Origin: Rhodocyclales bacterium
GTDB lineage: Bacteria; Pseudomonadota; Gammaproteobacteria; Burkholderiales; Rhodocyclaceae
NCBI GenBank assembly: GCA_016177805.1
Contig: JACOUN010000036.1
Coordinates: forward strand, 1-28,118
Length of the DNA stretch: 28,118 nucleotides
Reading direction: 5' to 3'
The notes under the pieces are model-generated. The model was given only the letters and a program-made list of their open reading frames with translations. It did no database searches and was not told the DNA's origin. Shown here one piece after another: positions 3,446 through 26,775 of this stretch. How positions within the stretch are numbered: the stretch's first letter is position 1; every line of letters begins with the position of its first letter. Both the position numbers and the translations under genes were made by a program.

Positions 3446-3482
3446 GACTATCTCTTTCGGTATGGTCGGCGGCGTGCCGTGG

Positions 3483-4724: not shown

Positions 4725-4755
4725 GTTCTTCTCTATCGTTTTCAGCTTGTTTGCG

Positions 4756-5895
4756 TCAGTTGCCCTTGAGTGTGACCAGGCCGTTCAGCACCTGATCCAG
4801 CCCGCCGAACACCGAGATCCGGTCGATCCGCTCCGCCACGCGCTCCAGCGTTTCCAGTTCCTTCAGGCGCAGCGCGGTCGGGTTGTCTTCCATGACCCGC
4901 GCGGTGTTGAGCAGCGAGCGGGTGGCCGAGGTTTCTTCGCGCCGGCGGATGACGTTGGCCTGGGCGGCCTTCTCCGCCTCGACCACCTGCGCGAGTATGG
5001 TGCGCATCTCGCCCGGCAGCACGATGTCCTTGACGCCGAGACTGCGGATCTCGATGCCGAATCCGGCCAGCCGCGTCACCGCGTACTCGCTCACCACCTC
5101 GTCGATGACGCGCTTGTTCTCCAGTAGTTCGTCGAGCGAACGGGTGCCCACCGCCGCGCGCAGCCCGAACTGCAGTTCGCGGTAGAGGTGTTCGACCGGT
5201 TTGGCGAGTTTCTCGCACGCCAGCAACACGTCGGCGTAACGCCAGGTCACGCCCAGGTTGATGCGCAGCGCGACCTTGTCGCGGGTCAGGATTTCCTGGC
5301 CGCTCACTTCCATGTTCTGCAGGCGCGTGTCCACCAGTTCGACCGAGATCTCGCGGTTGAAGCGCCAGTACGCCTCGATGCCGGGGTTCAGCATGCGTTC
5401 CATCCTGCCGTCCATCCTCACTATGCCGACATGGTAAGCCGGAACCTGCGCCAGCAGCACCGCGCCCAGGCCGGCCACCGGCCGGCCGCGCAGGCCGGGC
5501 TGGGTCAGGCGCATCGTCAGCGCGGCCGGCAGGGCGACCGTCTGGCGCAGATCGACCTTCTCCAGCCGGTGCGCGAGCACGCCCTTCCAGATCATGCGCC
5601 GGGTACCCGGCGGCAGGATTTCCACCAGCACGTCATTCTCGTAGCGCAGTCCCGCCTCGTCTTCGGACAGATCCATGATCTCGAAGCAGGATTCGACCAG
5701 ACGGGGTTCGCGGGCACGCAGATACTCACCCAGTTCGACATCGGTGAGCGCCGTGTCGATGCGCCATACCTGCACGCTCAGGCGGTTCATCGGGTCCCAG
5801 AAATAGTGGCGCCCGGCGCTCAGGAGGCGCACGAAATCCCCGTCCTTGAGCAAGGCGGCCTGTTCGTATTTCTTCACCACAAATCTCTTGATCAT
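4756..5895 (-). CDS. SPFH/band-7 (stomatin/flotillin-like) domain protein; first gene of the sigma54-driven rtc operon.
   Basis: The central SPFH core reads LRINLGVTWRY...GIEIRSLGVKDIVLPGEMRTILAQVVEAEKAAQANVIRRREETSATRSL, followed by a coiled-coil-like tail. I prefer the start at ATG 5895 (MIKRFVV), which has a GGAGAA SD 6 nt upstream. The ATG at 5913 lacks an SD. The gene ends 31 bp before rtcB. Confidence 0.88.
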   Translation of the reverse strand: MIKRFVVKKYEQAALLKDGDFVRLLSAGRHYFWDPMNRLSVQVWRIDTALTDVELGEYLRAREPRLVESCFEIMDLSEDEAGLRYENDVLVEILPPGTRRMIWKGVLAHRLEKVDLRQTVALPAALTMRLTQPGLRGRPVAGLGAVLLAQVPAYHVGIVRMDGRMERMLNPGIEAYWRFNREISVELVDTRLQNMEVSGQEILTRDKVALRINLGVTWRYADVLLACEKLAKPVEHLYRELQFGLRAAVGTRSLDELLENKRVIDEVVSEYAVTRLAGFGIEIRSLGVKDIVLPGEMRTILAQVVEAEKAAQANVIRRREETSATRSLLNTARVMEDNPTALRLKELETLERVAERIDRISVFGGLDQVLNGLVTLKGN

Positions 5896-6152
5896 GCTGT
5901 TCTCCAGTTTCATTCATGCGTTGCGTGAGCCGGTCAGCGCCGGCCCGGACGGACGCTTTGCGCGACACACCCAGGGAGGCGGGCGGTGAGCGCTGGGGGG
6001 AGCCACAAACGCGCTGCCCTCCCAGGCTCGCCGCCCGCCTTGCCGCGTGCGCGGCGCAGGGGTCGGTCCGGGCCGGCGACGGGGGCTTGCGCCCACCGCG
6101 ACCGGCGGTTGCTGCTTGACTGCGATGCTTCAGTCGTCTTTTGAGGACGATT

Positions 6153-6216
6153 TGGAGCGGGACTCGAACCCGCAACACGTTGCATATGCAACCGCTCTAC
6201 CCATTGAGCTATCCAG
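6153..6216 (-). ncRNA. tRNA-like element A (64 nt): canonical D-arm and T-arm, with shortened acceptor and anticodon-equivalent arms.
   Basis: Minus-sense sequence: CTGGA TA GCTC AATGGGT AGAGC G GTTGC-ATAT-GCAAC GTGTT GCGGG TTCGAGT CCCGC TCCA. The D-loop keeps the GG pair, and the T-loop TTCGAGT matches T-psi-C-G-A. The anticodon region is a 5-bp palindromic hairpin with a 4-nt loop, so no 7-nt anticodon loop exists. The acceptor helix is only 4-5 bp. It therefore cannot be a functional tRNA. Confidence 0.6.
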
Positions 6217-6265
6217 TGGTGTGCGATCCGGGAATCGAACCCGGATTTCTCAACCATGTCCGCAC
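6217..6265 (-). ncRNA. tRNA-like element B (49 nt): an acceptor/T-arm minihelix ending in an encoded ACCA, immediately 5' of element A.
   Basis: Minus-sense sequence: GTGCGGA CATGGTTGAGAAAT CCGGG TTCGATT CCCGG ATCGCAC A CCA. It has a perfect 5-bp T-stem, a TTCGATT loop and a 6-of-7 acceptor helix. The discriminator and CCA are encoded. It has no D or anticodon arms. Confidence 0.55.
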
Positions 6266-6393
6266 CATGACCGTGTCCTGCTGCCGCGGCATGCGCCAGA
6301 GCCAACGGGATTATTTCCGGGCCAGGCGCACCAGTGGGGCGGATGAACCCCGGCTCGTCGGCGTTGCAGCACTACAGCGGTCGAGCTACCCAT

Positions 6394-6410
6394 AGCGATA
6401 GGCGTGCCAG
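6394..6410 (-). promoter_or_regulatory. Sigma54 (RpoN) -24/-12 promoter for the tRNA-like/SPFH/rtcB/NTase/rtcA operon, divergent from rtcR.
   Basis: Minus-sense CTGGCAC-GCCTA-TCGCT. GG and GC are spaced exactly as in the TGGCAC-N5-TTGCW consensus. It sits 137 bp upstream of the rtcR start, as expected for an RtcR/sigma54 target. Confidence 0.6.
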
Positions 6411-6546
6411 TTGAGCCAGATTGGCGTGATAAATACGCAAGGCATTGAAATAGACGAGTAAATGCATGTTGCAGAAAGATCGTCGCAAGAACGACGCGCC
6501 GGCGTTACTATATGAAAGGCTAGTGAATTATCGTGTGGGATAAGCA

Positions 6547-8139
6547 ATGAAGAAGACGGTGGTGATCGGTTTTCTCGGGACTCAGCTCGACTACTCGGGG
6601 AATGGGGCCAAGCGGTGGGAGAGGTGGCGCCCCACCGTCAGCCTGTGCCAGCACGACGATCTGCTGGTGAGCCGGCTGGAACTGCTGCACGATGCACGTC
6701 GCCGGGGGTTGGCCGAGCGCGTCGCGCTCGACATCGCCAGCGTTTCACCGGAAACGCAAGTGCGCCGGGTTGAAACCGCGATCCGCGACCCGTGGGATTT
6801 CGAGGAGGTGTACACCGCGCTGCACGACTACGCGCGCGGCTACCCGTTCGACGTGGATAACGAGGACTACCTGATCCACATCACCACCGGCACCCACGTG
6901 GCGCAGATCTGCTGGTTCCTGCTGGCCGAGGCGCATTACCTGCCGGCACGGCTGCTGCAGACCTCGCCGCCACGCAAGCAGGCGCCGGCCGATTCGGTGG
7001 GCAGCTACACCCTGATCGATCTGGATCTGTCGCGTTACAACAAGATCGCGCAACGCTTCAGGCGTGAAGCCGAAGAAACCGTGACCCAGCTCAAGTCCGG
7101 CATCGCCACGCGCAACGCGCGCTTCAACGACATGATTGCGCAGATCGAGCACGTCGCCGGGCGCTCCTCCGCGCCGATGCTGCTCATCGGCCCGACCGGG
7201 GCGGGCAAGTCGTTTCTGGCCCGGCGCATCTTTGAGCTGAAGGTGCAGCGTCAGCGTTTCGCGGGTCGCTTCGTCGAAATCAACTGCGCCACGTTGCGCG
7301 GCGATTCAGCCATGTCGGCGCTGTTCGGTCACGTCAAGGGGGCGTTCACCGGGGCGCAGAGCGAGCGGCCGGGGTTGTTGCGTTCGGCGCATCAGGGGTT
7401 GCTGTTTCTCGATGAAATCGGGGAATTGGGCCTGGATGAGCAGGCCATGCTGCTCAAGGCGGTCGAGGAGAAACGCTTCTTCCCGTTCGGCGGCGACCGC
7501 GAGGTGGATAGCGACTTCCAGCTCATCGCCGGAACCCACCGCGATCTGCGGCAATGGGTGGCCGAAGGCCGTTTTCGCGAAGACCTCTACGCCCGCATCA
7601 ATCTGTGGACCTTCGATCTGCCGGGGTTGGCGGCGCGGCGCGAAGACATCGAACCGAACATCGATTTTGAACTGCGCCGCTATGCCGAAGCCGAAAACCA
7701 GCAGGTGCGCTTCAACGTCGAAGCGCGTCAGGCTTACTTGCGCTTCTGCAGCTCTGCCGAAGCGCGCTGGCCCGGCAATTTCCGCGAGCTGTCCGCGTCG
7801 ATCACGCGCCTGGCGACGCTAAGCGATGCGGGGCGCATCACCGTCGAGCATGTGCACGAGGAGATCGCCCGCCTGCGCCGCAGTTGGGGGGGGGATGAGT
7901 CCGGGGGCGGAGTGCTGAGCGCATTGCTGGGTGAGCGTGCGGAACAGATCGATCTGTTCGATCGCGCCCAGTTGTCCGCCGTGATCGCGGTGTGCCAGGC
8001 GTCGAACAGCCTGTCCGACGCCGGGCGCAAGCTGTTCGCGGTGTCACGTCAGGGAAAGAAGCAGCCCAACGACGCGGACCGGCTGCGCAAGTATCTGGCG
8101 CGATTCGGTCTGGATTGGGCTGCGCTCAGCGGCGCTTGA
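6547..8139 (+). CDS. rtcR: RtcR: a sigma54-dependent transcriptional activator with an N-terminal CARF domain, a AAA+ sigma54-interaction domain and a C-terminal HTH.
   Basis: The N-terminus (MKKTVVIGFLGTQLDYSGNGAKRWERWRPT...IASVSPETQV...PWDFEEVY...YLIHITTGTHVAQICWFLLAEA) matches my recollection of E. coli RtcR. Walker A GPTGAGKS and an ESELFGH-like SALFGH motif are present. Confidence 0.95.
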   Translation: MKKTVVIGFLGTQLDYSGNGAKRWERWRPTVSLCQHDDLLVSRLELLHDARRRGLAERVALDIASVSPETQVRRVETAIRDPWDFEEVYTALHDYARGYPFDVDNEDYLIHITTGTHVAQICWFLLAEAHYLPARLLQTSPPRKQAPADSVGSYTLIDLDLSRYNKIAQRFRREAEETVTQLKSGIATRNARFNDMIAQIEHVAGRSSAPMLLIGPTGAGKSFLARRIFELKVQRQRFAGRFVEINCATLRGDSAMSALFGHVKGAFTGAQSERPGLLRSAHQGLLFLDEIGELGLDEQAMLLKAVEEKRFFPFGGDREVDSDFQLIAGTHRDLRQWVAEGRFREDLYARINLWTFDLPGLAARREDIEPNIDFELRRYAEAENQQVRFNVEARQAYLRFCSSAEARWPGNFRELSASITRLATLSDAGRITVEHVHEEIARLRRSWGGDESGGGVLSALLGERAEQIDLFDRAQLSAVIAVCQASNSLSDAGRKLFAVSRQGKKQPNDADRLRKYLARFGLDWAALSGA

Positions 8140-8686: not shown

Positions 8687-8780
8687 AAGCGGAATTTTAC
8701 GCGAGCCGGTGCGGCCTTGCCCGTCCGCCCGCCGGATTTGTTGGTGGTGTGCCCAACATCACAACCGCCGCACCTCTGGT

Positions 8781-9713: not shown

Positions 9714-10471
9714 ACCTGTACGCGATCCGTGCCATCTACCGCTTTGAAATGGCCCGCGCGTGGCGCACGCTGACGCAAAGCATCATCTCGCCGGTGCTGT
9801 CGACCTCGCTCTACTTCGTGGTGTTCGGCGCGGCGATCGGTTCGCGCATTCCCGAGGTGGAAGGGGTGAGCTACGGCAGTTTCATCGTGCCGGGGCTGAT
9901 GATGCTGGCGCTGCTGACCCAGAGCATCGCCAACGCCTCGTTCGGCATATTCTTTCCGCGCTTCACCGGCGCGATCTACGAGGTGCTGTCGGCGCCCGTG
10001 TCGTACCTGGAAATCGTGGTGGCCTACGTCGGGGCGGCGGCGACCAAGTCGCTGGTTCTCGGGGTCATCATCTTGATCACGGCGAGCCTGTTCGTGCCGC
10101 TGCGCATCGAGCATCCTCTGTGGATGGTGCTGTTCCTGCTGCTGACCACCGTGACCTTCAGCCTGCTCGGCTTCATCATCGGCATCTGGGCGGACAACTT
10201 CGAGAAGCTGCAACTGGTGCCGATGCTGGTCGTCACCCCGCTGACCTTCCTCGGCGGCACCTTCTACTCGATCAGCATGCTGCCGCCGTTCTGGCAGACC
10301 GTGACCCTGTTCAACCCGGTGGTGTATCTGGTGAGCGGCTTTCGCTGGAGCTTCTTCGGCATTGCCGATGTCGAACCGGCGCTGAGCCTGGGCATGACCT
10401 TGTTGTTCCTCGGGGTGTGCGTCGCCATCGTGGCGTGGATATTCAGGACCGGCTACCGGCTCAAGCCGTGA
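9710..10471 (+). CDS. ABC-2-type transporter permease (YadH-like), 6 TM.
   Basis: Hydrophobic 253-aa product. Its start overlaps the ATPase stop (ATGA). The ABC-2 family is assigned from size and topology. Confidence 0.88.
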
Positions 10472-11370: not shown

Positions 11371-12557
11371 TGCTCAGCGATGTGTACTTCCCGCGTATCA
11401 ACGGGGTGTCCACCTCGATCCAGACCTTTCGCCAGCGCTTGCCCGAGCATGGCATCGCCACCACCCTCGTCGCCCCGGTCTACGGCGGCGAAGGCGAGGG
11501 GGCGGATGACGTGATACGCATTGCCGGGCGCGCGGTGCCGGGCGACCCGGAGGACCGCATCATGCGCTGGCGCGACGCCTGCCGGGCGGTGGACCGCATG
11601 CCGCTGGACGACTACGACGCGATCCATATCCAGACCCCGTTTCTCGCCCACTACCTCGGTGTGCGCCTGCGCCGCCGCACCGGCTTGCCGACCCTCGTCA
11701 CCTATCACACGCTGTTCGAGGACTATCTGCATCACTACGCGCCATGGCTGCCCCGTGCCGCGCTGCGCGCGCTCGCGCGCCGGTTGTCGTGCCGCCAGTG
11801 CAACGGGGTTGATGCGGTGATCGCGCCGTCGACCGCGATGGCCGGGCGTCTGCGCGAGTACGGCGTGCAAAGTCCGGTGCACGTCCTGCCCACCGGCATA
11901 CCGGTCGCGCATTACGCCAAGGGCAGCGGCGCGCGCTTTCGCGCCCGCCACGGGCTCGATCCCGCGCGTCCGCTGGCGCTGTACGTGGGGCGTCTGGCGT
12001 TCGAGAAGAACCTGCACTTCCTGCTCGACGTCGCCGAGCATGCGCGTGGCATGGGGTCGGACGTGTGCATGTTGCTGGCGGGTGACGGGCCGGCCAACGC
12101 CGCGCTGCGCGACGCGGTCAAGCGCCGGGGGCTGGGCGGGCAGGTCGCCTTCGCCGGCTATCTGTCGCGCGATGACGAACTGCCCGACTGCTATGCCGCC
12201 GCCGATGCGTTCGTGTTTGCCTCCAAGACCGAAACCCAGGGTCTGGTCCTGCTCGAAGCCATGGCGGCCGGGGTTCCCGTGGTGTGCCTGCGCGAGATGG
12301 GGGTGCGGGATGTGGTGGCCAACTGTGCGGCGGCCCGCACCCCGCCGGACGACGCGCCTGCCTTCGCCCGCGCGCTGCTCGACCTGCTGGCCGATCCGGC
12401 ACGTGGTACGGTCCTGGCGGATGCGGCGCGACAACATGCGGCGCAGTGGTCCGATACCGCCATGGCGGCGCGCCTGGCGACGTTGTATCGCCAGCTCGCG
12501 CCACGTTCCGCGCGCGCAGCTCACCTGCCCTTGCAGGGCAAACCGCTCGAAGGTTGA
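11358..12557 (+). CDS. Family 4 (GT-B) glycosyltransferase.
   Basis: The product starts MRVLMLSDVYFPRINGVS and carries the EX7E-like region FASKTETQGLVLLEAMAAGVPVV. A strong GAGGAGGAGG SD lies inside the upstream gene's 3' end. Confidence 0.88.
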   Translation: MRVLMLSDVYFPRINGVSTSIQTFRQRLPEHGIATTLVAPVYGGEGEGADDVIRIAGRAVPGDPEDRIMRWRDACRAVDRMPLDDYDAIHIQTPFLAHYLGVRLRRRTGLPTLVTYHTLFEDYLHHYAPWLPRAALRALARRLSCRQCNGVDAVIAPSTAMAGRLREYGVQSPVHVLPTGIPVAHYAKGSGARFRARHGLDPARPLALYVGRLAFEKNLHFLLDVAEHARGMGSDVCMLLAGDGPANAALRDAVKRRGLGGQVAFAGYLSRDDELPDCYAAADAFVFASKTETQGLVLLEAMAAGVPVVCLREMGVRDVVANCAAARTPPDDAPAFARALLDLLADPARGTVLADAARQHAAQWSDTAMAARLATLYRQLAPRSARAAHLPLQGKPLEG

Positions 12558-12609
12558 CCCGATTGCGCGGCGTCGGGGCGCTGGCTGGGGTGAGGTGGTG
12601 CGGAGGCAC

Positions 12610-13140
12610 TCAGAACGACTGGCCGGGACTCGGGGCCGAGACTGGCGGCGGCCCGCTTTGCGGCATCCAGAAGTGTGGATCGACCGGACCGCTGGTCAGC
12701 ACCAGCACCGCCAGCAGCGACAGGGTGGCACCGAGCGTGAGCACGGTGCGCAGCGGCAGATACCAGTGGGGGATGGCGCGGCTCTGGGCCAGATGCACGT
12801 CCAGGCCGTAGTGCACCCAATACACCGCCAGCAGCACCCCGATGTCCAGCCCCACCGGCAGCAGCATCGCGCTCCAGCCCGCCAGCGCCGGGATCACGCT
12901 CCAGCCCATCAAACGCCACTGATCGGTACGGGAGGTGCGCGGCATCATCATCGCGAAGCCCCAGTGCAACGCGCCGATGAAGGTGAGTATGGTCGCGCCG
13001 TAGCCCACCAGTGCGACGTGCACGAAGGCGCTGCCACTGGGGGTACGCACCCGCCATATGGCGAGCGCGACGAAGATGACCAGCCCACCCACTCCAAGCC
13101 AGCGAGCAGCGGACGGTAGCGGAGCGGGGATGCGTTGCAT
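12610..13140 (-). CDS. DUF3429-family membrane protein (about 176 aa).
   Basis: The product reads MQRIPAPLPSAARWLGVGGLVIFVALAIW...GALHWGF, typical of DUF3429. An AGGAGG SD precedes ATG 13140. The six-frame ORF extends further, but the upstream ATGs lack an SD. Confidence 0.75.
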   Translation of the reverse strand: MQRIPAPLPSAARWLGVGGLVIFVALAIWRVRTPSGSAFVHVALVGYGATILTFIGALHWGFAMMMPRTSRTDQWRLMGWSVIPALAGWSAMLLPVGLDIGVLLAVYWVHYGLDVHLAQSRAIPHWYLPLRTVLTLGATLSLLAVLVLTSGPVDPHFWMPQSGPPPVSAPSPGQSF

Positions 13141-13361
13141 GGCTGCCTCCTGTGCTGTTGTTGGTATGACACGGTGGCAGCGGTTGCGTTCGTGTCCGCA
13201 CTGTCCGGCGATCCGGCACCGGAGCTGCGTGCGCATGCGGGCCGCGTTGCAGCAATGGTCGCGGACCAGTCATGCATGTCCGGAATCATATCGTCGTTCG
13301 TCTTGGCGTTTCGCGTTTTGCGCGCCGGATCAAAAAACTGGCGTTGTTACGATTCGCTACA

Positions 13362-13384
13362 TTGCGCAAACAGTTGCGCAAACA
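13362..13384. promoter_or_regulatory. Tandem 11-bp direct repeat TTGCGCAAACA (x2), each containing the palindrome TTGCGCAA. A candidate operator in the divergent intergenic region.
   Basis: aTTGCGCAAACAgTTGCGCAAACAtgg. The palindrome centres are 12 bp apart. It lies about 160 bp upstream of the acyl-CoA ligase start and about 220 bp upstream of the DUF3429 start. Confidence 0.4.
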
Positions 13385-13539
13385 TGGCTTGCGAGACTCC
13401 AGTCACAGAGAAGAGTGCGCGGCCGCATTGCAGCCGGACGCATCGTCACTTGCGACATCGGGGGGTGTCGCGGCCGACAGTCCGGACCCGGTCCGAGGTC
13501 GGTGGATGTACGGGGAACTTATCAAAGGAGGATCTGGGA

Positions 13540-15516
13540 ATGTCCGATACTACCGGGCAAACGGCGCACGCCAATACGCTCGACACCTTTCCGCGCCTGC
13601 TGATGCAGCACGCGAAGACCAGGCCCAACCGGCCGGCGATGCGCGAGAAGGCATACGGAATCTGGCAGACCCATAGCTGGGCCGAGGTCGCGCGCAATGT
13701 GCGCGCCATCGCCTGCGGACTGGCCGAGCTGGGTTTCAAGCGCGGCGATCGTCTCGCCATCATCGGGGACAACCGCCCGCGCCTGTACTGGTCCATTGCC
13801 GCCTGCCAGTGCCTGGGTGGCATTCCGGTGCTGCTGTACCAGGATGCGGTGGCCGAGGAAATGGCCTACGTGCTGCAGGATGCCGAGATCAAGTTTGCCG
13901 TGGTCGAGGATCAGGAGCAGGTCGACAAGATGCTGGAGATCCAGCCCGACGTGCCGTTGCTCCAGCATGTCATCTATGACGATGCGCGAGGCATGCGCCA
14001 CTACACCCAGACCCTGCTGCTGGGGCTGGATGAGCTGGAGGAGATGGGGCGCATCCATGATCGCAACCAGAGCGATTTTCTCGACGCCGAGATCGACAAG
14101 GGGTCGAGCGACGACATCTCGGTGATGTTGTACACGTCTGGCACCACCGGCAAGCCCAAGGGGGTGTGCCAGACGCATGGCGCCTTCATTGCCGCCGCGC
14201 GCGGCGGGGTGCAGTTCGACAACCTCAACGAAGAGGACGACATCCTGTCCTACCTGCCGATGGCGTGGGTGGGGGATCACCTGTTCTCGTATGCGCAGGC
14301 CATGGTGGCCGGTTTCACCATCAACTGCCCGGAGTCGGGCGAGACGGTCATGACCGATCTGCGCGAGATCGGCCCGACCTATTACTTCGCGCCGCCGCGC
14401 GTGTTCGAGAACCTGCTGACCACCGTCATGATCCGCATGGAGGATGCCGGCTGGTTCAAGCGCAAGATTTTCCACTACGCGATGGCGGTCGCGCGCCGCT
14501 GCGGCGCCGAGATTCTCGACGGCAAGCCGGTGGCGAGCGGTGAGCGGTTGCAATACTGGTTGAGCAATTTGCTGGTGTTCGGGCCGTTGAAGAACGTGCT
14601 CGGCCTGAGCCGCGTGCGCGTGGCGTACACCGCTGGTGCGGCGATCGGACCTGATCTGTTCCGTTTCTATCGTTCGATCGGCATCAACCTCAAGCAGTTG
14701 TATGGCCAGACCGAGACTTGCGCCTACGTGTGCCTGCAGCCGGACGGCGAGATCAAGCTTGATTCGGTGGGCAAGCCCGCACCGTTCGTCGAGGTCAAGC
14801 TCGCCGACAACGGCGAGATCCTGGTCAAGGGGCCGATGCTGCTCAAGGCCTATTACAAGCGCCCCGATGCCACGGCCGAGTCGATCAACGCCGATGGTTA
14901 CTTCCTGACGGGGGACGCCGGGTTCTTCGACCAGGACGGGCATCTGAAGATCATCGACCGGGCCAAGGACGTGGGCAGGCTCACCAGCGGGGCGATGTAT
15001 GCGCCCAACTTCATCGAGAACAAGCTCAAGTTCTTCCAGCACGTCAAGGAGGCGGTGGCCTTCGGCAACGGTCGTGATTCGGTGACCGCATTCATCAACA
15101 TCGACCTCGAAGCGGTGGGCAACTGGGCCGAGCGCAAGGGCATGGCTTATTCCGGCTACACCGATCTGGCGCAGATGGCGCCGGTGTACGAGTTGATCCG
15201 CGACTGCATTGAAAAGGTCAACGCCGAACTGGCCTCCGACCCGATGATGAGCGGATCACAGGTCACGCGCTTCCTGATCCTGCACAAGGAACTCGATGCC
15301 GATGACGGCGAGCTGACGCGCACGCGCAAGGTTCGGCGCAATTTCATCGCGGAGCGCTACGCCGTGCTGATCGATGCCCTGTATTCGGGCAATCCCAGCC
15401 AGTACGTCGAAACCGAAGTCAAATACGAAGACGGCCGCACCGGCAAGATTGCCGCGACGCTGCGCATTGAAGACGTCAAGACATTCGCGCCGCAGGCCGC
15501 GAAGTCGGCCGCTTGA
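13540..15516 (+). CDS. Long-chain-fatty-acid/aromatic-acid--CoA ligase (AMP-binding superfamily), 658 aa.
   Basis: AAAGGAGGA SD precedes ATG 13540. The AMP-binding motif is YTSGTTGKPKGV, with a YGQTE motif. The six-frame ORF 13135..15516 is over-extended upstream. Confidence 0.9.
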   Translation: MSDTTGQTAHANTLDTFPRLLMQHAKTRPNRPAMREKAYGIWQTHSWAEVARNVRAIACGLAELGFKRGDRLAIIGDNRPRLYWSIAACQCLGGIPVLLYQDAVAEEMAYVLQDAEIKFAVVEDQEQVDKMLEIQPDVPLLQHVIYDDARGMRHYTQTLLLGLDELEEMGRIHDRNQSDFLDAEIDKGSSDDISVMLYTSGTTGKPKGVCQTHGAFIAAARGGVQFDNLNEEDDILSYLPMAWVGDHLFSYAQAMVAGFTINCPESGETVMTDLREIGPTYYFAPPRVFENLLTTVMIRMEDAGWFKRKIFHYAMAVARRCGAEILDGKPVASGERLQYWLSNLLVFGPLKNVLGLSRVRVAYTAGAAIGPDLFRFYRSIGINLKQLYGQTETCAYVCLQPDGEIKLDSVGKPAPFVEVKLADNGEILVKGPMLLKAYYKRPDATAESINADGYFLTGDAGFFDQDGHLKIIDRAKDVGRLTSGAMYAPNFIENKLKFFQHVKEAVAFGNGRDSVTAFINIDLEAVGNWAERKGMAYSGYTDLAQMAPVYELIRDCIEKVNAELASDPMMSGSQVTRFLILHKELDADDGELTRTRKVRRNFIAERYAVLIDALYSGNPSQYVETEVKYEDGRTGKIAATLRIEDVKTFAPQAAKSAA

Positions 15517-15530
15517 GGAGGGGGTAATTC

Positions 15531-16313
15531 ATGGCAAGAGAGATCGGCGAGGTCATCCTTGACCTGCAGAACATCTCGCTGCGCTTCGGCGGGGTGAAAG
15601 CGCTGACCGATATCAGTTTCAACGTCCGCAAGCACGAGATCCGCGCGATCATCGGGCCCAACGGCGCGGGCAAGAGTTCCATGCTCAACGTGATCAACGG
15701 GGTCTATCACCCCCAGGAAGGCACGATCATGTTCCACGGCAAGCCGCGCAAGGACATGGAGCCGCACATGGCGGCCTCGCAGGGCATCGCGCGCACGTTC
15801 CAGAACATTGCGCTGTTCAAGGGCATGAGCGTGCTCGACAACATCATGACCGGGCGCAACCTGATGATGAAGAGCAATTTCCTGCAGCACGCGCTGTTTC
15901 TGGGCAGCGCCCGGCGCGAGGAAATCGAGCATCGCAAGAAGGTCGAGGAGGTCATCGAGTTTCTCGAGATCCAGAGCATACGCAAGACGCCAGTGGGGCG
16001 GCTGCCCTACGGTCTGCAAAAGCGGGTGGAGCTGGCGCGGGCGCTGGCGGCCGAGCCCAGCCTGCTGCTGCTGGACGAACCCATGGCGGGCATGAACGTC
16101 GAGGAAAAGCAGGACATGTGCCGCTTCGTGCTCGACGTCAATGACCAGTTCGGCACCACCATCGTGCTGATCGAACACGACATGGGCGTAGTCATGGACA
16201 TCTCCGACCGGGTGGTCGTGCTGGACTATGGCAAGAAGATAGGCGACGGCGTGCCCGACGAGGTCAAGAACGACCCGGCGGTGATCGAAGCCTACCTTGG
16301 CACATCGCACTGA
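15531..16313 (+). CDS. livG: Branched-chain-amino-acid-type ABC transporter ATP-binding protein (LivG-like).
   Basis: GPNGAGKSS, LPYGLQKRVELARAL and LLLLDEPMAGM. A GAGGAGGGGG SD is present. Confidence 0.9.
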   Translation: MAREIGEVILDLQNISLRFGGVKALTDISFNVRKHEIRAIIGPNGAGKSSMLNVINGVYHPQEGTIMFHGKPRKDMEPHMAASQGIARTFQNIALFKGMSVLDNIMTGRNLMMKSNFLQHALFLGSARREEIEHRKKVEEVIEFLEIQSIRKTPVGRLPYGLQKRVELARALAAEPSLLLLDEPMAGMNVEEKQDMCRFVLDVNDQFGTTIVLIEHDMGVVMDISDRVVVLDYGKKIGDGVPDEVKNDPAVIEAYLGTSH

Positions 16314-16349
16314 CCCCGGCCCGCGACTTGGGATATTGAGGAGATAACA

Positions 16350-17276
16350 ATGACTTTCTTTTTTGAAGTGCTGATCGGCGGCTTGCTCTCGGGGGTGCTG
16401 TACGCCCTGGTCGCCCTCGGCTTCGTGTTGATATTCAAGGCGTCCGGGGTGTTCAACTTCGCCCAGGGGGCGATGGTGTTCTTCGCCGCGCTGACGTTCG
16501 TGGGGTTCACCGAAGTGCTGCCTGGCTGGACCGGACTGGAGGAAGGGGGCAGCGCGGTGTTCTGGCTGGCCTTCGTGCTGGCGCTGGGGGCGATGATCGT
16601 GCTGGGCATCGCCACCGAGAAGGTCGTGCTGCGCCCGCTGGTCAACCAGCCGCCCATCACGTTGTTCATGGCGACCATAGGGCTGACCTTTCTGGTCGAA
16701 GGTATCGCGCAGGGGCTCTGGGGTGCCGCGGTGCGCGGTCTGTCCCTGGGGATCGAGGACGAGCCGGTCATGTGGATACTCGACCGCTTCGAGATGATCA
16801 TCTCCAAGTTCGACGTCATCGCGGCGGCGGTGGCGCTGGTGCTGTTCGTGTTGCTGGCGGCGTTGTTCCAGTACACCAAGGTGGGGCGCGCGCTGCGCGC
16901 GGTCGCCGATGACCACCAGGCGGCATTGTCGGTCGGCATTCCGCTCAAGCACATCTGGGCCATCGTGTGGGGGGTGGCCGGGTTCGTGGCATTGGTCGCG
17001 GGCCTGATCTGGGGGGCGCGCAACGGGGTGCAGTTCGCGTTGACCTTCACCGCGCTGAAAGCGCTGCCGGTGCTGATCCTGGGCGGGTTCACCTCGGTGC
17101 CGGGCGCGATCCTCGGGGGCTTGATCATCGGCGCCTCGGAGAAACTCGGCGAGGTGTATATCGGACCCTACATGGGCGGCGGGATCGACTCGTGGTTCCC
17201 CTACATGCTCGCGCTGCTTTTCTTGCTGGTTCGTCCGGAAGGGCTGTTCGGCGAGAAGCACATCGATCGGGTCTGA
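16350..17276 (+). CDS. livH: Liv-type ABC transporter permease (LivH-like).
   Basis: Hydrophobic 308-aa product following livG, with a GAGGAG SD. Confidence 0.88.
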   Translation: MTFFFEVLIGGLLSGVLYALVALGFVLIFKASGVFNFAQGAMVFFAALTFVGFTEVLPGWTGLEEGGSAVFWLAFVLALGAMIVLGIATEKVVLRPLVNQPPITLFMATIGLTFLVEGIAQGLWGAAVRGLSLGIEDEPVMWILDRFEMIISKFDVIAAAVALVLFVLLAALFQYTKVGRALRAVADDHQAALSVGIPLKHIWAIVWGVAGFVALVAGLIWGARNGVQFALTFTALKALPVLILGGFTSVPGAILGGLIIGASEKLGEVYIGPYMGGGIDSWFPYMLALLFLLVRPEGLFGEKHIDRV

Positions 17277-17313
17277 TCGACCGGCATAACGACAACGAAT
17301 TCGGAGACTACGC

Positions 17314-18381
17314 ATGTTTTATCGTGAGGCCGGCCAGTTCAAGGCCAGTTACCGGGAAGATCAGCAGATTTTCCCGATCCGCCAGGATCGGATCGGGATC
17401 GTTGCCGCGATCGTGTTCTTCTTCCTGGTCGTCCCTTTGATCGCGAACCAGTACTGGCTGCAGGCCATCCTGACCCCCGTACTGATCTTTTCCCTGGCCG
17501 CGCTCGGGCTCAACATCCTGACCGGCTATGCCGGGCAGTTGTCGCTGGGGTCCGCAGCGTTCATGGCGGTGGGAGCGTTCGGCACCTACAACTTCATGCT
17601 GCGCATGGACGGCATACCGTTTCTCGTGGCGCTGGTGCTGGGGGGGCTGTGTGCCGCCGTGGTCGGCATCCTGTTCGGCTTGCCCAGCCTGCGCATCAAG
17701 GGTTTCTACCTTGCGGTGGCGACACTGGCGGCGCAGTTCTTCATCGTCTGGGTACTGGTCAAGTTCGGCTGGTTCTCCAACCATTCGACCTCGGGCGTGA
17801 TCACCGCCCAGCACGTCGAGATACTCGGCTACACCTTCGATTCGCCCTTGTCCAAGTACCTGCTGACGCTGGCGGTGGTGGTGGTGTTCGCGCTGTTGGC
17901 CAAGAACATGGTGCGCTCGGCCACCGGGCGCAAGTGGATGGCGGTGCGCGACATGGACGTGGCGGCCGAGGTCATCGGCATACGCCTGATGGGCACCAAA
18001 CTGCAGGCATTCGCGATCTCGTCGTTCTACTGCGGCGTCGCCGGCGCGCTGTATGCCTACATGTATCTGGGCACGGTGGAGCCGGAAGGCTTCAACCTCG
18101 ACCTGTCGTTCAAGATCCTGTTCATGATCATCATCGGCGGGGTCGGCTCCATCCTGGGGTCTTTCATCGGCGCGGCCTTCATCGTGCTGCTGCCGGTGTT
18201 CCTGAACGTGGCCATGCACACCTCGCTGGGCGAGTTCATCCCGGCCAACATCGCAGCGAACCTGGAGCTGATCATCTTCGGCGGCATGATCGTTTTCTTC
18301 CTGATCGTCGAACCGCACGGTCTGGCGCGTCTTTGGCAGATTGCCAAGGAGAAGCTGAGGATCTGGCCGTTCCCGCACTAG
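17314..18381 (+). CDS. livM: Liv-type ABC transporter permease (LivM-like).
   Basis: Hydrophobic 355-aa product, third gene in the Liv-type order. Confidence 0.88.
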   Translation: MFYREAGQFKASYREDQQIFPIRQDRIGIVAAIVFFFLVVPLIANQYWLQAILTPVLIFSLAALGLNILTGYAGQLSLGSAAFMAVGAFGTYNFMLRMDGIPFLVALVLGGLCAAVVGILFGLPSLRIKGFYLAVATLAAQFFIVWVLVKFGWFSNHSTSGVITAQHVEILGYTFDSPLSKYLLTLAVVVVFALLAKNMVRSATGRKWMAVRDMDVAAEVIGIRLMGTKLQAFAISSFYCGVAGALYAYMYLGTVEPEGFNLDLSFKILFMIIIGGVGSILGSFIGAAFIVLLPVFLNVAMHTSLGEFIPANIAANLELIIFGGMIVFFLIVEPHGLARLWQIAKEKLRIWPFPH

Positions 18382-18454
18382 GATTGCAGTTCGCCGGCCG
18401 CGCGTCGGCGGTTGCGTTTCACCCGAAGCACCATATAAACGAGGAGGCACACAC

Positions 18455-19777
18455 ATGCAGTTCAAGAAAAGCTTAATGCTCGGAGCGGCCGTTGCGGGTC
18501 TGGCGGTCACTGGCTACGCGGCGGCGGCGGAGCAGTACATCGGTCTGCCGACCTACCGCGTGGGCGCTTACGCCGCAGGCGGTACAGGCCTGTTTGGTGG
18601 CTGGATCGACTACATGACGATGGTCAATGAGCGTGACGGTGGTGTGAACGGACTCAAGCTCGTCTGGGAGGAGTGCGAAACCGAATACAACAACGCGCGT
18701 GGCGTGGAATGCTACGAGCGCATGAAGAAGGGTGGCACGACCGGCAATACGGTGTTCCAGCCGCTGTCGACCGGCATCACCTACTCGGTGCTCGATCGCG
18801 TCGCGAACGACAAGATTCCGCTCGTGACCATGGGCTACGGCCGTACCGACGCCGCCGATGGGCGTGTGTTCCCGTGGGTCTTCCCGCTGATCACCACCTA
18901 CTGGTCGCAGAGCACCGCCAAGATCAAGTTCATCGGCATGAAAGAAGGCGGGATGGACAAGCTCAAGGGCAAGAAGATCGTCAACATTTATCACGATTCG
19001 GCCTACGGCAAGGAAACCATCCCGGTGCTCGACGCACAGGCCAAGCAGTACGGTTTCGAGGTCATCCACATCGCGGTGGCTCACCCCGGCAACGAGCAGC
19101 AGTCGCAGTGGTTGCGGGTGCGCCAGGAAAAGCCCGACTGGGTGATCCTGCGCGGCTGGGGCGTAATGAACCCGACCGCGATCCGCACCGCCGCGCGTAC
19201 CGGCTTCCCGCGTGACAAGATCGTCGGCGTGTGGTGGTCCGGTTCCGAAGAGGACGTGATTCCGGCCGGTGACGGCGCCAAGGGCTACATCGCGGCGGGC
19301 TTCAACGTCGCGGGCACGGACTTCCCGGTGATCAAGGAAATCCAGAAATACGTCTATGCCAAAAACATGGGCAACATGGAAGACAAGTCCCGCGTCGGCA
19401 GCGTGCTGTACAACCGGGGGGTGGTGCATGGCATCGTGACGCTGGAGGCCATCCGCACCGCGCAGACCAAGTTCGGCACGGGCAAGGCGCTGACCGGCGA
19501 GCAGGTTCGCTGGGGCTTCGAGAACCTCAACATCACCGACGAGCGCCTCAAGGAACTTGGCGCTTCCGGCTTCCTGCCGCCGCTGGCCACGAGCTGCATG
19601 AACCACGAAGGTTCGGGCAAGGTGAAGTTCCAGCAGTGGGACGGCGCCAAGTGGAAGGTCATCACCGACTGGATCGACAGCGACCAGGCGCTGGTACGCC
19701 CGATGATCGAGGAATCGGCAGCCAAGTACGCCGCCGAGAAGGGCATCACTCCGCGTGATTGCTCCAAGGAAATGTAA
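18455..19777 (+). CDS. Periplasmic substrate-binding protein of the Liv-type (type I PBP) family, 440 aa, with a signal peptide.
   Basis: Signal peptide MQFKKSLMLGAAVAGLAVTGYAAAA, with a GAGGAGG SD. It is larger than LivK, which fits the aromatic or organic-acid binding subfamily. Confidence 0.85.
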   Translation: MQFKKSLMLGAAVAGLAVTGYAAAAEQYIGLPTYRVGAYAAGGTGLFGGWIDYMTMVNERDGGVNGLKLVWEECETEYNNARGVECYERMKKGGTTGNTVFQPLSTGITYSVLDRVANDKIPLVTMGYGRTDAADGRVFPWVFPLITTYWSQSTAKIKFIGMKEGGMDKLKGKKIVNIYHDSAYGKETIPVLDAQAKQYGFEVIHIAVAHPGNEQQSQWLRVRQEKPDWVILRGWGVMNPTAIRTAARTGFPRDKIVGVWWSGSEEDVIPAGDGAKGYIAAGFNVAGTDFPVIKEIQKYVYAKNMGNMEDKSRVGSVLYNRGVVHGIVTLEAIRTAQTKFGTGKALTGEQVRWGFENLNITDERLKELGASGFLPPLATSCMNHEGSGKVKFQQWDGAKWKVITDWIDSDQALVRPMIEESAAKYAAEKGITPRDCSKEM

Positions 19778-19837
19778 TTGCGTTACCGCGGCGGGTCCGG
19801 GCTGCCGGGCCTGCCGCGTGCAGGCTTCCCCTTCCGT

Positions 19838-19900
19838 GGGGAGGTCTGCACGGTGCATGTCCGCGTGCGCCGTGCAGACCCTCTCCCGGTTTTTCCGGGG
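19838..19900 (+). terminator. Structured intergenic element after the binding-protein gene: a long imperfect hairpin followed by CCGG-TTTTT-CCGG. A candidate intra-operon terminator or attenuator.
   Basis: GGGGAGGTCTGCACGG...CCGTGCAGACCCTCTCCC, then GGTTTTTCCGG. An additional GCCTGC-cgcgt-GCAGGC hairpin lies at 19811..19827. It sits in the 156-bp gap before livF. Confidence 0.4.
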
Positions 19901-19933
19901 AGGTGGGACGGAGACCATAGGCGAAGATAGTCA

Positions 19934-20770
19934 ATGAATACAGCCACGAACACTTCAGCGACCCACGCGTCGCCCTACCTCAGCATCAACAACGTCGAGG
20001 TTATCTACGATCACGTCATACTGGTGCTGAAGGGCGTGTCCCTGCAGGTGCCCAAGGGCGGCATCGTGGCCCTGCTCGGCGCCAATGGCGCGGGCAAGTC
20101 GACCACGCTCAAGTCGATCTCGAACCTGCTCGGCGCCGAGCGCGGCGACGTCACCAAGGGCAGCATCGAGTTCAAGGGCGCGCGTATCGATCAGCTCACC
20201 CCCAACGATCTGGTCAAGCGCGGCGTGATCCAGGTCATGGAAGGGCGCCACTGTTTCGGCCACCTGACCATAGAAGAGAACCTGCTTACCGGCGCCTACA
20301 CGCGCAGCATTTCGCGCGCCGAGTTGAAGAGCAGCCTCGACAAGGTCTACCACTACTTTCCGCGCCTCAAGGAACGTCGCGGCTCGCAGGCCGGCTACAC
20401 GTCGGGCGGTGAGCAGCAGATGTGCGCGATCGGACGAGCCTTGATGGCCAAGCCGGAAATGATCCTGCTGGATGAGCCATCGATGGGACTGGCGCCGCAG
20501 ATCGTCGAGGAGATCTTCGAGATCGTCAAGGATCTGAACGCCAAGGAACAGGTGAGCTTCCTGCTCGCCGAACAGAACACCATGGTGGCGCTGCGTTACT
20601 CCGATTTTGGCTACATCCTCGAGAACGGTCGCATCGTGATGGAGGGGCATGCCACCGACCTGGCCACCAACGAAGATGTGAAGGAGTTCTACCTTGGCTT
20701 GTCCGGCGACGGGCGCAAGAGCTTCCGTGACGTCAAGCACTACCGCCGGCGCAAACGCTGGCTCTCGTAA
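19934..20770 (+). CDS. livF: Liv-type ABC transporter ATP-binding protein (LivF-like), with an approximately 25-aa N-terminal extension.
   Basis: GANGAGKSTT, TSGGEQQMCAIGRAL and ILLDEPSMGLAP. Confidence 0.88.
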   Translation: MNTATNTSATHASPYLSINNVEVIYDHVILVLKGVSLQVPKGGIVALLGANGAGKSTTLKSISNLLGAERGDVTKGSIEFKGARIDQLTPNDLVKRGVIQVMEGRHCFGHLTIEENLLTGAYTRSISRAELKSSLDKVYHYFPRLKERRGSQAGYTSGGEQQMCAIGRALMAKPEMILLDEPSMGLAPQIVEEIFEIVKDLNAKEQVSFLLAEQNTMVALRYSDFGYILENGRIVMEGHATDLATNEDVKEFYLGLSGDGRKSFRDVKHYRRRKRWLS

Positions 20771-20899
20771 CACGGCGTCAGCGGTGTGCGCGATGCGCGT
20801 GGGGTAGTCTCGCCGCCGCCGCGCGCCCCTGGCCACCTGGTTTCCATTGCTGTCCGGTGTCAATCACCGCGGCAGTCTGCGCCCAACGGATGAACGCAC

Positions 20900-22132
20900 A
20901 TGACTTACTACGACAACAAAGAAACCCGTGATCCGGCTGAGCGTGAGCGTGATCTGTTCGAGCGTCTGCCTGCACAGATCGCTCATGCCAAGGCCCAAGC
21001 CCCGGCGTTCGGCCGCAGTTTTGCCGACGTCGATCCCGCCAGCGTGACTACGCGCGAGGCTCTCGCGCGCCTGCCCGTGGTGCGCAAGTCCGAGCTGGTC
21101 GAACTGCAGAAACTGGCGCGCCCGTTCGGCGGGTTCGCCGCGGTGCGCTGGGGGCGCAAATGCCATCGCGTATTTGCCTCGCCCGGCCCCATCTACGAGC
21201 CCGAATCGGACCGCCCCGACTACTACCGGCTCGCCCGCAGCATGTACGCGACCGGTTTTCGCGAGGGGGATCTGGTGCATAACACCTTTTCCTATCACCT
21301 CACCCCCGGCGGTTTCATGATGGAGACTGCGGCGCTGGCGCTCGGCTGCACCGTGTTTCCAGCCGGCGTCGGGCAGACCGATCACCAGATTGCCGCGATC
21401 GCGGATCTAAAGCCCAATGCCTACGCCGGCACGCCGTCCTTTCTGCGCATCCTGCTGGAAAAGGCCGACAAGCACGGCGTCAAGGTCAGCTTCACCAAGG
21501 CCTTCGTGGTCGGCGAGGCTTTCCCCCCGAGCGTGCGCGAGGCGTTTGCCGCGCGCGGTATCACCGCCCATCAGGCCTACGCGACCGCCGATGTCGGTTT
21601 GATCGCGTATGAAACGCAGGCCCGTGAAGGGTTGGTCGTCGATGAGGACGTGATCGTCGAGATCGTCGTTCCCGGCACCGGCGACCCGGTGGCGCCGGGC
21701 GATGTCGGTGAAGTGGTCGTCACCACCTTCAACCCCGACTATCCGCTGATCCGCTTCGGCACCGGCGACCTGTCGCGCGCCATGCCCGGCCAGTCTCCAT
21801 GCGGGCGCACCAACATGCGCATCACCGGCTGGATGGGGCGCGCCGACCAGACCACCAAGATCAAGGGCATGTTCGTGCACCCCGGCCAGATCGCCCAGAT
21901 CGTCAAGCGTCACCCCGAACTGCAGCGTGCGCGCCTGGTGGTGGACAATCCGGGGTTGAACGACGCGATGACGCTGCAGTGCGAGGTCGAATCCGGCGGC
22001 GACGCGCTGGCCCAGGCGATCGCCGCCAGCGTGCGCGAGATCACCAAGCTGCGTGGCGATGTGCTCTTTGTTGCCCCCGGCGCAATCGCGCGCGACGGCA
22101 AGGTCATCGACGACCTCCGGACCTACGAGTAG
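20900..22132 (+). CDS. Phenylacetate-CoA ligase (PaaK)-family / coenzyme F390 synthetase-like adenylate-forming enzyme.
   Basis: 410 aa with PaaK-like architecture: an N-terminal region reading LPVVRKSELVELQ, the motifs YAGTPSF and AYATADVG, and a C-terminal KIKGMFVHPGQI. Confidence 0.8.
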   Translation: MTYYDNKETRDPAERERDLFERLPAQIAHAKAQAPAFGRSFADVDPASVTTREALARLPVVRKSELVELQKLARPFGGFAAVRWGRKCHRVFASPGPIYEPESDRPDYYRLARSMYATGFREGDLVHNTFSYHLTPGGFMMETAALALGCTVFPAGVGQTDHQIAAIADLKPNAYAGTPSFLRILLEKADKHGVKVSFTKAFVVGEAFPPSVREAFAARGITAHQAYATADVGLIAYETQAREGLVVDEDVIVEIVVPGTGDPVAPGDVGEVVVTTFNPDYPLIRFGTGDLSRAMPGQSPCGRTNMRITGWMGRADQTTKIKGMFVHPGQIAQIVKRHPELQRARLVVDNPGLNDAMTLQCEVESGGDALAQAIAASVREITKLRGDVLFVAPGAIARDGKVIDDLRTYE

Positions 22133-26244: not shown

Positions 26245-26475
26245 CCATGTCGGCTGGTGCATGGCGCTGTGGGCGGCGTGCCACCAATGCCGACGCATCG
26301 ATGGTGCAGACCAACTGCGGCGCCGAACAAGGCGCGCCCGCGTAACGCCGGCAGCGGCGCGGCAAGGAATGAAACAGGGGGGGGCGCCACGATTCCCACA
26401 GATCCAGTCGAACTGAAACTTCAACCTCCGCACCGCGCCTTCCGGGCGGCGTTTCAAACCGGAGTCGGTATTACG

Positions 26476-26775
26476 ATGAAGCTAAAAATCTACACCGCCG
26501 CCGAGGTTCGCGAGCTACGCCGCAAGAGCGGCCAGACCCAATACAAGTTCTGGCAATGCCTGCACATCACACAGAGCGGCGGCAGTCGGTATGAGTCGGG
26601 GCACAAGATGCCGGCGCCCGTACAACTGCTGTTGAACATAACCTTTGGCACAGAAGCCAAGTCTGCGGCCTGCGTTAACGCGCTGCGCGAGCTGGCGAAG
26701 CCGCCGAAGAAGACAAAGGCTCCGAAACCGGCGAAACCGGCGAAAGAGGTGACCGCGTTTGGCATGCTGCCATGA
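26476..26775 (+). CDS. Small XRE-family helix-turn-helix DNA-binding protein (99 aa) with a Lys/Pro/Ala-rich basic C-terminal tail.
   Basis: A GGAG SD lies 10 nt upstream. The HTH reads VRELRRKSGQTQYKFWQCLHITQSGGSRYESGHKMPAPVQLLL. The tail reads KPPKKTKAPKPAKPAKE. Confidence 0.7.
   Translation: MKLKIYTAAEVRELRRKSGQTQYKFWQCLHITQSGGSRYESGHKMPAPVQLLLNITFGTEAKSAACVNALRELAKPPKKTKAPKPAKPAKEVTAFGMLP

Follow-up and report, generated by a model that had tools for sequence, protein, structure and literature searches.

What is the purpose of two identical copies of a short word that stand almost end to end in front of a transport operon, and what kind of factor reads them? This question is raised by a locus in a 28,118-bp stretch of DNA from a Rhodocyclales MAG (hereafter, the window), where a string search located TTGCGCAAACA exactly at 13362–13372 and 13374–13384 on the + strand and at no other place. 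A sequence-only reading of the locus had described an exact 11-bp direct repeat with an 8-bp palindrome in each copy, and both statements hold: the copies are identical and each opens with TTGCGCAA. The copies are not tandem 11-mers, however, since one base (G13373) intervenes and the unit is 12 bp (TTGCGCAAACAG / TTGCGCAAACAT). Likewise, the palindrome centres are indeed 12 bp apart, but this is about 1.14 helical turns and not the single turn that had been claimed. Because each copy begins with the palindrome, the two copies double as an inverted repeat with 8-nt arms and a 4-nt gap. The exact 8-mer TTGCGCAA occurs in the 28,118 bp at these two places only, and there are 17 matches with up to one mismatch against 15.9 expected; since such variants are about as frequent as chance predicts, the window does not contain the word as a dispersed or REP-like element. 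When the window was simulated with a first-order Markov model, about 4% of the runs gave an exact repeat of at least 11 nt at a spacing of 11–13. By itself, the repeat is only mildly improbable, and its significance comes from conservation.

The region of about 400 bp that holds the repeat has a GC content of 0.58–0.60, against 0.65–0.74 in most neighbouring genes, as expected from its earlier description as a lower-GC region; the ligase gene itself ranges from 0.60 to 0.67. The features of the locus are collected in Table 1. The operon on the + strand probably serves to take up and activate short or branched organic acids, and the only close solved homologue of its binding protein is 4ru0, a name that includes no ligand. 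In several unrelated lineages (L001, L005, L009, L015, L022, L025, L078 and others), the ligase/Liv operon is adjoined by a gene for the fused isobutyryl-CoA mutase IcmF (B12-binding + MeaB + MM_CoA_mutase), and this adjacency hints that the operon handles short or branched acids.

Table 1. Positions of the block, its parts and the neighbouring genes in the window
Feature	Position	Strand	Basis or remark
Promoter/operator block of 50 bp, ACGATTCGCTACATTGCGCAAACAGTTGCGCAAACATGGCTTGCGAGACT	13349–13398	+	Ungapped alignment; position weight matrix
Distal unit, ACGATTC	13349–13355	+	ACAATTC in nearly all relatives
Second unit, TACATT	13358–13363	+	Final two bases are the first two of repeat copy 1
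Repeat copy 1, TTGCGCAAACA	13362–13372	+	About -43 to -33 from the inferred start
Repeat copy 2, TTGCGCAAACA	13374–13384	+	About -31 to -21; at the place of the -35 element
Putative extended -10, TGcGAGACT	13390–13398 (hexamer 13393–13398)	+	G43, A46 and T50 invariant, A48 at least 90% conserved (alignment A1)
DUF3429 gene	ORF 12610–13236, likely start about 13141	-	
Whole operon, putatively regulated	13540–22132	+	Pfam and NCBIfam matches; same gene order in relatives
AMP-binding acyl-CoA ligase, 658 aa	13540–15516	+	Pfam/NCBIfam
livG	15531–16313	+	Pfam/NCBIfam
livH	16350–17276	+	Pfam/NCBIfam
livM	17314–18381	+	Pfam/NCBIfam
Peripla_BP_6 binding protein	18455–19777	+	Pfam/NCBIfam
livF	19934–20770	+	Pfam/NCBIfam
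PaaK-like ligase	20900–22132	+	Pfam/NCBIfam

No regulator gene adjoins the repeat, as had been noted from the sequence; the nearest are rtcR (6547–8139) and a gene for an RsaL-like HTH protein (26257–26775). The expectation that the cognate factor is encoded elsewhere is borne out so far as none lies beside the repeat in the window. The site had also been placed upstream of both the ligase/Liv operon and the DUF3429 gene on the other strand. It is a regulatory site of the operon, and the DUF3429 gene has no part in it: the gene 5′ of the conserved block is DUF3429 in the window and encodes a GGDEF protein, glutamate dehydrogenase, icmF, PEP-CTERM proteins or others in relatives, and because this gene is not the same in all genomes, the block is to be assigned to the ligase operon alone. 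Two other parts of the window deserve mention. An RNA-repair cluster occupies 1531–8139, where rtcR, which encodes a sigma-54 activator (+ strand), is divergent from the minus-strand genes SPFH/Band_7 (4756–5913), rtcB (3483–4724), the RlaP nucleotidyltransferase gene (2627–3445) and rtcA (1531–2634). The RsaL-like HTH protein (PF22495) is encoded next to a 312-aa AP2-domain protein (26923–27861), and the two may be a quorum-sensing or mobile-element remnant.

We compared 80 loci encoding relatives of the ligase and added further loci from Aromatoleum, Thauera and Azoarcus olearius. The motif was found about 70–150 nt upstream of the ligase start in Azoarcus, Pseudothauera, Thauera, Zoogloea and related MAGs, and it was likewise upstream of the ligase in the Aromatoleum, Thauera and Azoarcus olearius loci. 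The repeat pair proved to be the promoter-proximal half of an ungapped 50-bp block. In relatives, this block reads ACAATTCnnTACATTnnnCAAACAGTTGCGCAAACATGnnnTGCGAnACT, is equivalent to 13349–13398 of the window and aligns without gaps among Azoarcus, Aromatoleum, Thauera, Pseudothauera and Zoogloea. Across 17 ligase promoters, mean pairwise identity was 0.82 in the block and only 0.32 and 0.33 in the 50-nt flanks. Conservation upstream of orthologous operons, a check that the sequence-only reading had recommended, was thus observed (82% identity). A position weight matrix of the block recognized exactly one site in the window and one in each ligase locus, and a scan of the window and all loci detected no further sites besides copies in L210 and L211 that are described below. 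In terms of REP elements, there is one block per 10–22-kb locus, always at a promoter, in place of multiple copies; the earlier preference for a regulatory site over a REP-like repeat is upheld by this and by the presence in the window of two adjacent copies only. Elsewhere, REP-like repeats (GTAGGAGCGGCGCCAGCCGCGAG) do fill intergenic regions of a Thauera locus (L202, 18400–18705 and 20345–20792). Two longer repeats flank the block in the window, namely a 14-nt direct repeat (GGCCGCGTTGCAGC / GGCCGCATTGCAGC, 13240–13253 / 13421–13434) and a 20-nt inverted repeat with 80% complementarity (13191–13210 / 13471–13490); both are probably chance matches in GC-rich DNA.

Outside Rhodocyclales, Hydrogenophilus thiooxidans (L025) has a block-like promoter with two 1-nt insertions, TAACAATTGCGTTACATTTCCGCAAAACCGTTGTAACAATCGCGTGCGATGATT, about 140–190 nt upstream of the ligase, in which the palindrome TTGTAACAA replaces TTGCGCAA. 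BLAST searches of plasmids with the block returned chance matches of 19–30 nt only. A metagenome scan for ACANTTGCGCAAACA gave no orthologue among the at least 120 loci listed, and its chance matches were of every GC content. Two tandem look-alikes from that scan (L118 and L190) were inspected; L118 is unrelated, being similar to a LacI-type operator and located upstream of a gene for a sugar-binding protein. Literature searches turned up nothing relevant on TTGCGCAA, on FadP/PsrA/LiuR motifs or on regulation in Aromatoleum. Taken together, the block is a genuine and conserved regulatory site; it is of a familiar kind, and apparently it has not been described before.

Which feature of the block is under selection? 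We addressed this with alignment A1, whose 17 rows are 16 ligase-promoter blocks and the icmF copy of L210. In repeat copy 2, all 11 positions are conserved in most relatives (T26, T27, G28, G30, C31, A32 and A33 invariant; C29 at least 90% conserved). In copy 1, relatives keep only TT....AAACA, and the inner GCGC is replaced by CCGC, CCAC, TGAA, CTGC, TCCC, CGAA, ACGC, TCAA and others; among the 17 rows, variants of the left TTGCGCAA include TTCCGCAA, TTCCACAA, TTTGAAAA, TTCTGCAA and TTTCCCAA. Exact duplicates of the TTGCGCAAACA type are also present in L002, L003, L005 and L212. The inner four pairs between the two 8-mers are broken in 4 to 12 of the 17 sequences, and no compensatory change was seen at any of the eight possible pairs. 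Because of these broken pairs and the lack of compensation, selection acts on neither a hairpin nor a pair of equivalent palindromes. The earlier proposal of dimer-of-dimers palindromes fails at this point, as the left core varies without compensation and dyad symmetry is kept in copy 2 only.

What is retained in both copies across the 17 sequences is the direct repeat TTnnnnAAACA. Upstream of it, the distal unit has invariant A1, A4, T5 and T6 with A3 at least 90% conserved, the window being the only sequence with G at block position 3, and the second unit has invariant T10, A11, C12, T14 and T15 with A13 at least 90% conserved. Self-similarity of the block is maximal at shifts of 10 and 12 bp, and the ACA-centred units CACAATT, TACATT, AAACAGTT and AAACATG follow one another at spacings of 10, 11 and 12 bp. 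The selected feature is the direct repeat together with the two upstream units, ACAATTC and TACATT.

The position of the block relative to the promoter is also informative. Its 3′ end, TGcGAnACT, fits an extended -10 element (TG, one base and a hexamer whose second position is A and whose sixth is T), from which we infer a transcription start at about 13404–13406. Counted from there, the array begins at about -59 with ACA cores near -56, -46, -35 and -23. Copy 2 ends 8 bp before the conserved GAGACT, and this distance is fixed across the alignment. A consensus scan of the intergenic region detected no canonical -35/-10 pair, and TTGCGC of copy 2 cannot act as a -35 hexamer because it is only 13 bp from the -10 hexamer. 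The repeat is very probably part of a transcription factor-dependent promoter of the ligase operon. Several known sites were compared with the conserved positions by eye. The FNR/NnrR-type TTG-N8-CAA, the sigma-54, ECF and sigma-32 promoters, LysR T-N11-A, the marbox, the TyrR box and PhaR repeats did not fit. A PurR/LacI operator, identical to ACGCAAACGTTTGCGT at 13 of 16 positions, was rejected in the same manner, as the left half is not conserved.

The same operon is arranged differently in sister lineages. In 45 of the 80 loci, a gene of the Crp/Fnr family (220–240 aa, cNMP_binding + HTH_Crp_2) is divergent from the ligase; these loci come from Dechloromonas, Accumulibacter, Propionivibrio, Comamonadaceae, Achromobacter and others (L010–L080). 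Their promoters carry the palindrome ATTGTC-N8-GACAAT (core TTGTC-N8-GACAA) about 100–230 nt upstream of the ligase start, and it accompanies the divergent gene in most of these loci. TAnnnT lies exactly 29 nt past the centre in 30 of the 48 candidate palindromes (up to two mismatches), with most others off by 1 nt; this geometry makes the palindrome a class II site at -41.5. In the window's clade, GAGACT is the counterpart of the -10 that these promoters have (TAGACT, TACACT), and it corresponds more generally to TAnACT/TAnnAT 29 ± 1 nt after the palindrome centre. Between the Crp/Fnr site and the -10, Comamonadaceae also have a conserved GCGTCAAA. Neither the Crp/Fnr gene nor the palindrome was found in block-type loci, and the best 120 homologues of the regulator included no named protein of Azoarcus, Thauera or Aromatoleum. 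Because of these two absences, the window's clade seems to have exchanged the regulatory system of this operon; the difference looks like a non-orthologous replacement in that clade.

A candidate for the replacement is encoded close to the block in several relatives. In Azoarcus taiwanensis (L002), a PAS_7-PAS_4-HisKA kinase gene is divergent from the ligase. Full-length orthologues of this kinase are hybrid proteins of about 685 aa with a receiver domain and are present in Azoarcus, Aromatoleum, Thauera, Pseudothauera, Denitromonas, Nitrogeniibacter and Zoogloeaceae. Those that are named among the best 120 matches all come from the block-bearing clade, and several share a contig with the ligase. 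Throughout the loci compared, the kinase gene overlaps the 5′ end of a gene for a 237–250-aa regulator of the OmpR/PhoB family (Response_reg + Trans_reg_C); in A. olearius BH72 (L206), the regulator gene spans 12055–12786. This regulator is a generic family member whose best NCBIfam models, CreB and OmpR, both score below their curated cut-offs. In L002 and L209, the pair and the ligase operon diverge directly from each other; in L207 (= L001) and L210, icmF is the gene that diverges from the pair, and the ligase operon comes after icmF. L212, L214 and Azoarcus sp. TTM-91 have the pair within 10 kb of the ligase, with an AraC-type gene and icmF in between. The genes that surround it are always icmF, a methylmalonyl-CoA epimerase-like gene and those for propionyl-CoA carboxylase and methylmalonyl-CoA mutase.

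Further copies of the block were detected near this system. The kinase-icmF intergenic region of L210 contains a copy, ACAATTTGCTACATTGACAAAACAGTTGCGCAATGGTG, that scores 43 bits and is followed by GACTAT at the same 8-bp spacing, and that of L207 contains a degenerate one. In L211, the operon after icmF is another one, livGF-SBP-livHM, and upstream of it stands AAGATTCGCTACAATTCAGCAATGCTTGTGCAAAGATT, from which TAGCCT is again spaced by 8 bp; the 14.2 bits of this copy were reached in none of 200 simulations (mean maximum -16.6, highest 12.1). The block thus appears to be used at three kinds of promoter, those of the ligase operon, of icmF and of a second Liv-type transporter, each of them next to the two-component system. 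Alternatively, icmF insertion may have produced the extra copies of L207 and L210 as by-products that are not working sites.

Other conserved words and genes were seen in the same neighbourhoods. MerR/LiuR-like palindromes, TTGACGTTTACGTGAACGTAA and TTGACGCGAACGTCAA, stand in promoter-like contexts upstream of icmF or the kinase gene (L207 at about 9760–9790, the kinase-icmF intergenic regions of L210 and L211, and L206 at about 9900–9915). Directly upstream of the methylmalonyl-CoA epimerase-like (Glyoxalase_4) gene, which is itself downstream of the response regulator, ATAATTATGAATTCTTAA is conserved (L206 at about 13330–13350, L207 at about 12885–12905 and L208 at about 13770–13790). On the 3′ side of the ligase operon there is a gene for a second hybrid kinase (sCache_4-HAMP-HisKA-HATPase-REC) with one for a 133–151-aa protein that has no Pfam match (L201 19905–21977, L202 19908–21992, L204 20012–22010 and L209 1–1050). 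Both are kept in Aromatoleum, Thauera, A. olearius and a MAG, usually after a CoA_transf_3 gene, and the window has a Mem_trans gene at the place of this second kinase.

Based on these observations, we predict that the block is a box bound by the phosphorylated OmpR/PhoB-family regulator of an uncharacterised two-component system, a reading to which we give about an even chance. The box would be an array of about four head-to-tail units, (C)ACAATT, TACATT, AAACAGTT and AAACATG, of which the two promoter-proximal ones are supplied by the TTGCGCAAACA copies. This array would fill the -35 position and end 8 bp upstream of the extended -10. When occupied by the phosphorylated response regulator of the hybrid PAS_7-PAS_4 histidine kinase system, it would recruit RNA polymerase, as PhoB does at the pho box, and so switch on the acyl-CoA ligase/Liv-type ABC transporter operon; we would expect activation rather than repression. 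PhoB-type activation is suggested by direct repeats spaced by about one turn, the replacement of the -35 element, the linkage of the regulator in relatives and the re-use of the block nearby. A short or branched organic acid is the probable trigger, given that operon and sensor travel with the genes for icmF, propionyl-CoA carboxylase and methylmalonyl-CoA mutase. The two-component system may also be present in the window's own genome.

Several findings count against this reading. The 28-kb window carries no two-component system, and the pair lies elsewhere in the genome, away from the ligase operon, in both A. olearius BH72 and Azoarcus sp. CIB. No block was seen upstream of the kinase in BH72, L208 or CIB. 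OmpR/PhoB-family sites usually repeat every 10–11 bp, whereas the spacing of the proximal units here is 12 bp, and conservation of the inner GCGC of copy 2 is full or nearly so, which is beyond the needs of a hexamer-repeat model. Finally, about half of the genomes have a linked AraC-type regulator as well.

It is conceivable, although unlikely, that the site consists of two adjacent 8-bp palindromes, each bound by a dimer (e.g., of a ribbon-helix-helix or small HTH repressor), which would cooperatively block the -35 region. The window itself invites this explanation with its two perfect TTGCGCAA palindromes 12 bp apart, as do the exact duplicates in the four relatives named above, the conserved GCGC core of copy 2, the palindromic counterpart in Hydrogenophilus and a location over the -35 region that suits a repressor. 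However, the left core is not conserved and its pairs are broken without compensation, about 25 bp of conserved upstream sequence (ACAATTC..TACATT) are left unexplained, there is no -35 element to occlude, and no such regulator gene was linked in any locus examined. This reading could apply to the right-hand palindrome only, with the same low probability. Slightly more doubtful is a composite site, in which a second factor would read a separate, strictly conserved TTGCGCAA palindrome superimposed on the response-regulator array. In that event, duplication of the 12-bp unit may have made the second palindrome in the window, A. taiwanensis, Pseudothauera and two MAGs, and the site would have been caught while acquiring a new operator, after a two-component system had wholly replaced the ancestral Crp/Fnr control of the operon.

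Binding of the block by the AraC-family regulator (Arabinose_bd + HTH_18) that many relatives encode between icmF and the kinase is about as doubtful as the composite site. The gene adjoins icmF and the kinase in L201, L206, L208, L212, L213, L214 and TTM-91, and direct repeats overlapping the -35 region are used by AraC-type activators too, an architecture that the block shares. On the other hand, the gene is absent nearby in L002, L209, L207, L210 and L211, all of which bear the block, and the icmF-araC intergenic regions carry another conserved word, TTGGCGGATTTTGCACGA, with no match to the block matrix. This word was observed in L201 (about 385–405), L206 (about 8690–8710), L208 (about 8700–8720) and L009 (about 300–420), and it is probably the site of the AraC-type regulator.

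It is improbable that RNA polymerase with some sigma factor reads the block by itself through UP-like and -35-like elements, with no dedicated factor. Such a reading would account for the fixed, ungapped geometry relative to the -10-like element and for the TTG of copy 2, which resembles the start of a -35 hexamer, but not for the 13-bp distance from TTGCGC to the -10 hexamer or for a consensus scan without a promoter of the sigma-70 type. Moreover, some 38 bp of specific, not especially AT-rich sequence are conserved upstream of -19, and sister lineages have an activator site at the same place.

That the block is a diverged site of the Crp/Fnr regulator of Dechloromonas, Accumulibacter and Burkholderiales is very improbable and largely refuted. 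The operon is the same, with the divergent gene in 45 of 80 loci and the palindrome centred 29 ± 1 nt before TAnnnT in most of these, and both kinds of promoter share the word ACAATT. Nevertheless, the block lacks an inverted repeat with its centre near -41.5, the Crp/Fnr gene was found in none of the block-type loci, and the clade's named proteins are missing from the regulator's best homologues. The least credible reading, a DNA or RNA hairpin (GCGCAA-ACAG-TTGCGC) or dispersed REP-like repeat prompted by the perfect 8-nt inverted repeat with its 4-nt gap, is refuted by the pair counts, with no covariation and with pairs broken in most relatives; the single occurrence of the repeat pair in the window, the lack of an Rfam match and a position upstream of the predicted transcription start also speak against it.

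The block offers a concrete, testable target for a PAS kinase/OmpR-type system that is still uncharacterised, together with a candidate regulon made up of the ligase/Liv operon, icmF and a second transporter of the Liv type. This system is conserved in Azoarcus, Aromatoleum, Thauera and their relatives, which are important in wastewater treatment and the anaerobic degradation of pollutants. The locus would also serve as an example of regulator replacement, in which the same operon is under Crp/Fnr control in most Betaproteobacteria while one clade relies on another system. Mechanistically, it is neither new in kind nor surprising.

The proposed box can be placed among known sites. The pho box of E. 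coli, bound by PhoB, has an 11-bp unit of CTGTCAT plus 4 bp, and strong promoters have two boxes, or four units. As in the pho box, where the units end about 10 bp upstream of the -10, head-to-tail units replace the -35 element here, and an OmpR/PhoB-family activator would bind them; unlike in the pho box, the proximal units are 12 bp and of another sequence, and the linked regulator scores below the cut-off of the PhoB model. PhoP boxes have the form (T/G)GTTTA-N5-(T/G)GTTTA in enterobacteria and consist of TT(A/T/C)ACA repeats in Bacillus. The opposite strand of our block reads TGTTTG-N6-TGTTTG, which is near the PhoP hexamer, and in both cases direct repeats lie at -35; the spacer is 6 nt instead of 5, however, the repeats face the opposite way relative to the gene, and neither the organism nor the signal is the same. 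CreB recognizes the 'cre tag' TTCAC-N6-TTCAC, and OmpR sites at ompF and ompC are tandem half-sites of 10–11 bp with ACA/CAC cores. The block likewise has tandem half-sites with ACA cores, and CreB and OmpR are the best named models for the linked regulator, but the scores below the cut-offs indicate that it is not an orthologue of either, and the cre tag sequence is absent from the block. The class II Crp/Fnr site of the sister lineages serves the same operon from the same promoter position, with an activator that would overlap the -35 next to a good -10; in contrast to the block, it is an inverted repeat accompanied by a divergent regulator gene, and the window's clade has neither. Operators of the ribbon-helix-helix proteins MetJ and Arc are short palindromic boxes repeated about one turn apart, as the boxes are here, but palindromic symmetry is conserved in just one of our two boxes, and there is no linked gene for a repressor of this type. 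In our judgement, the likeness of the block to the pho, PhoP, OmpR and CreB boxes is one of resemblance, not of membership.
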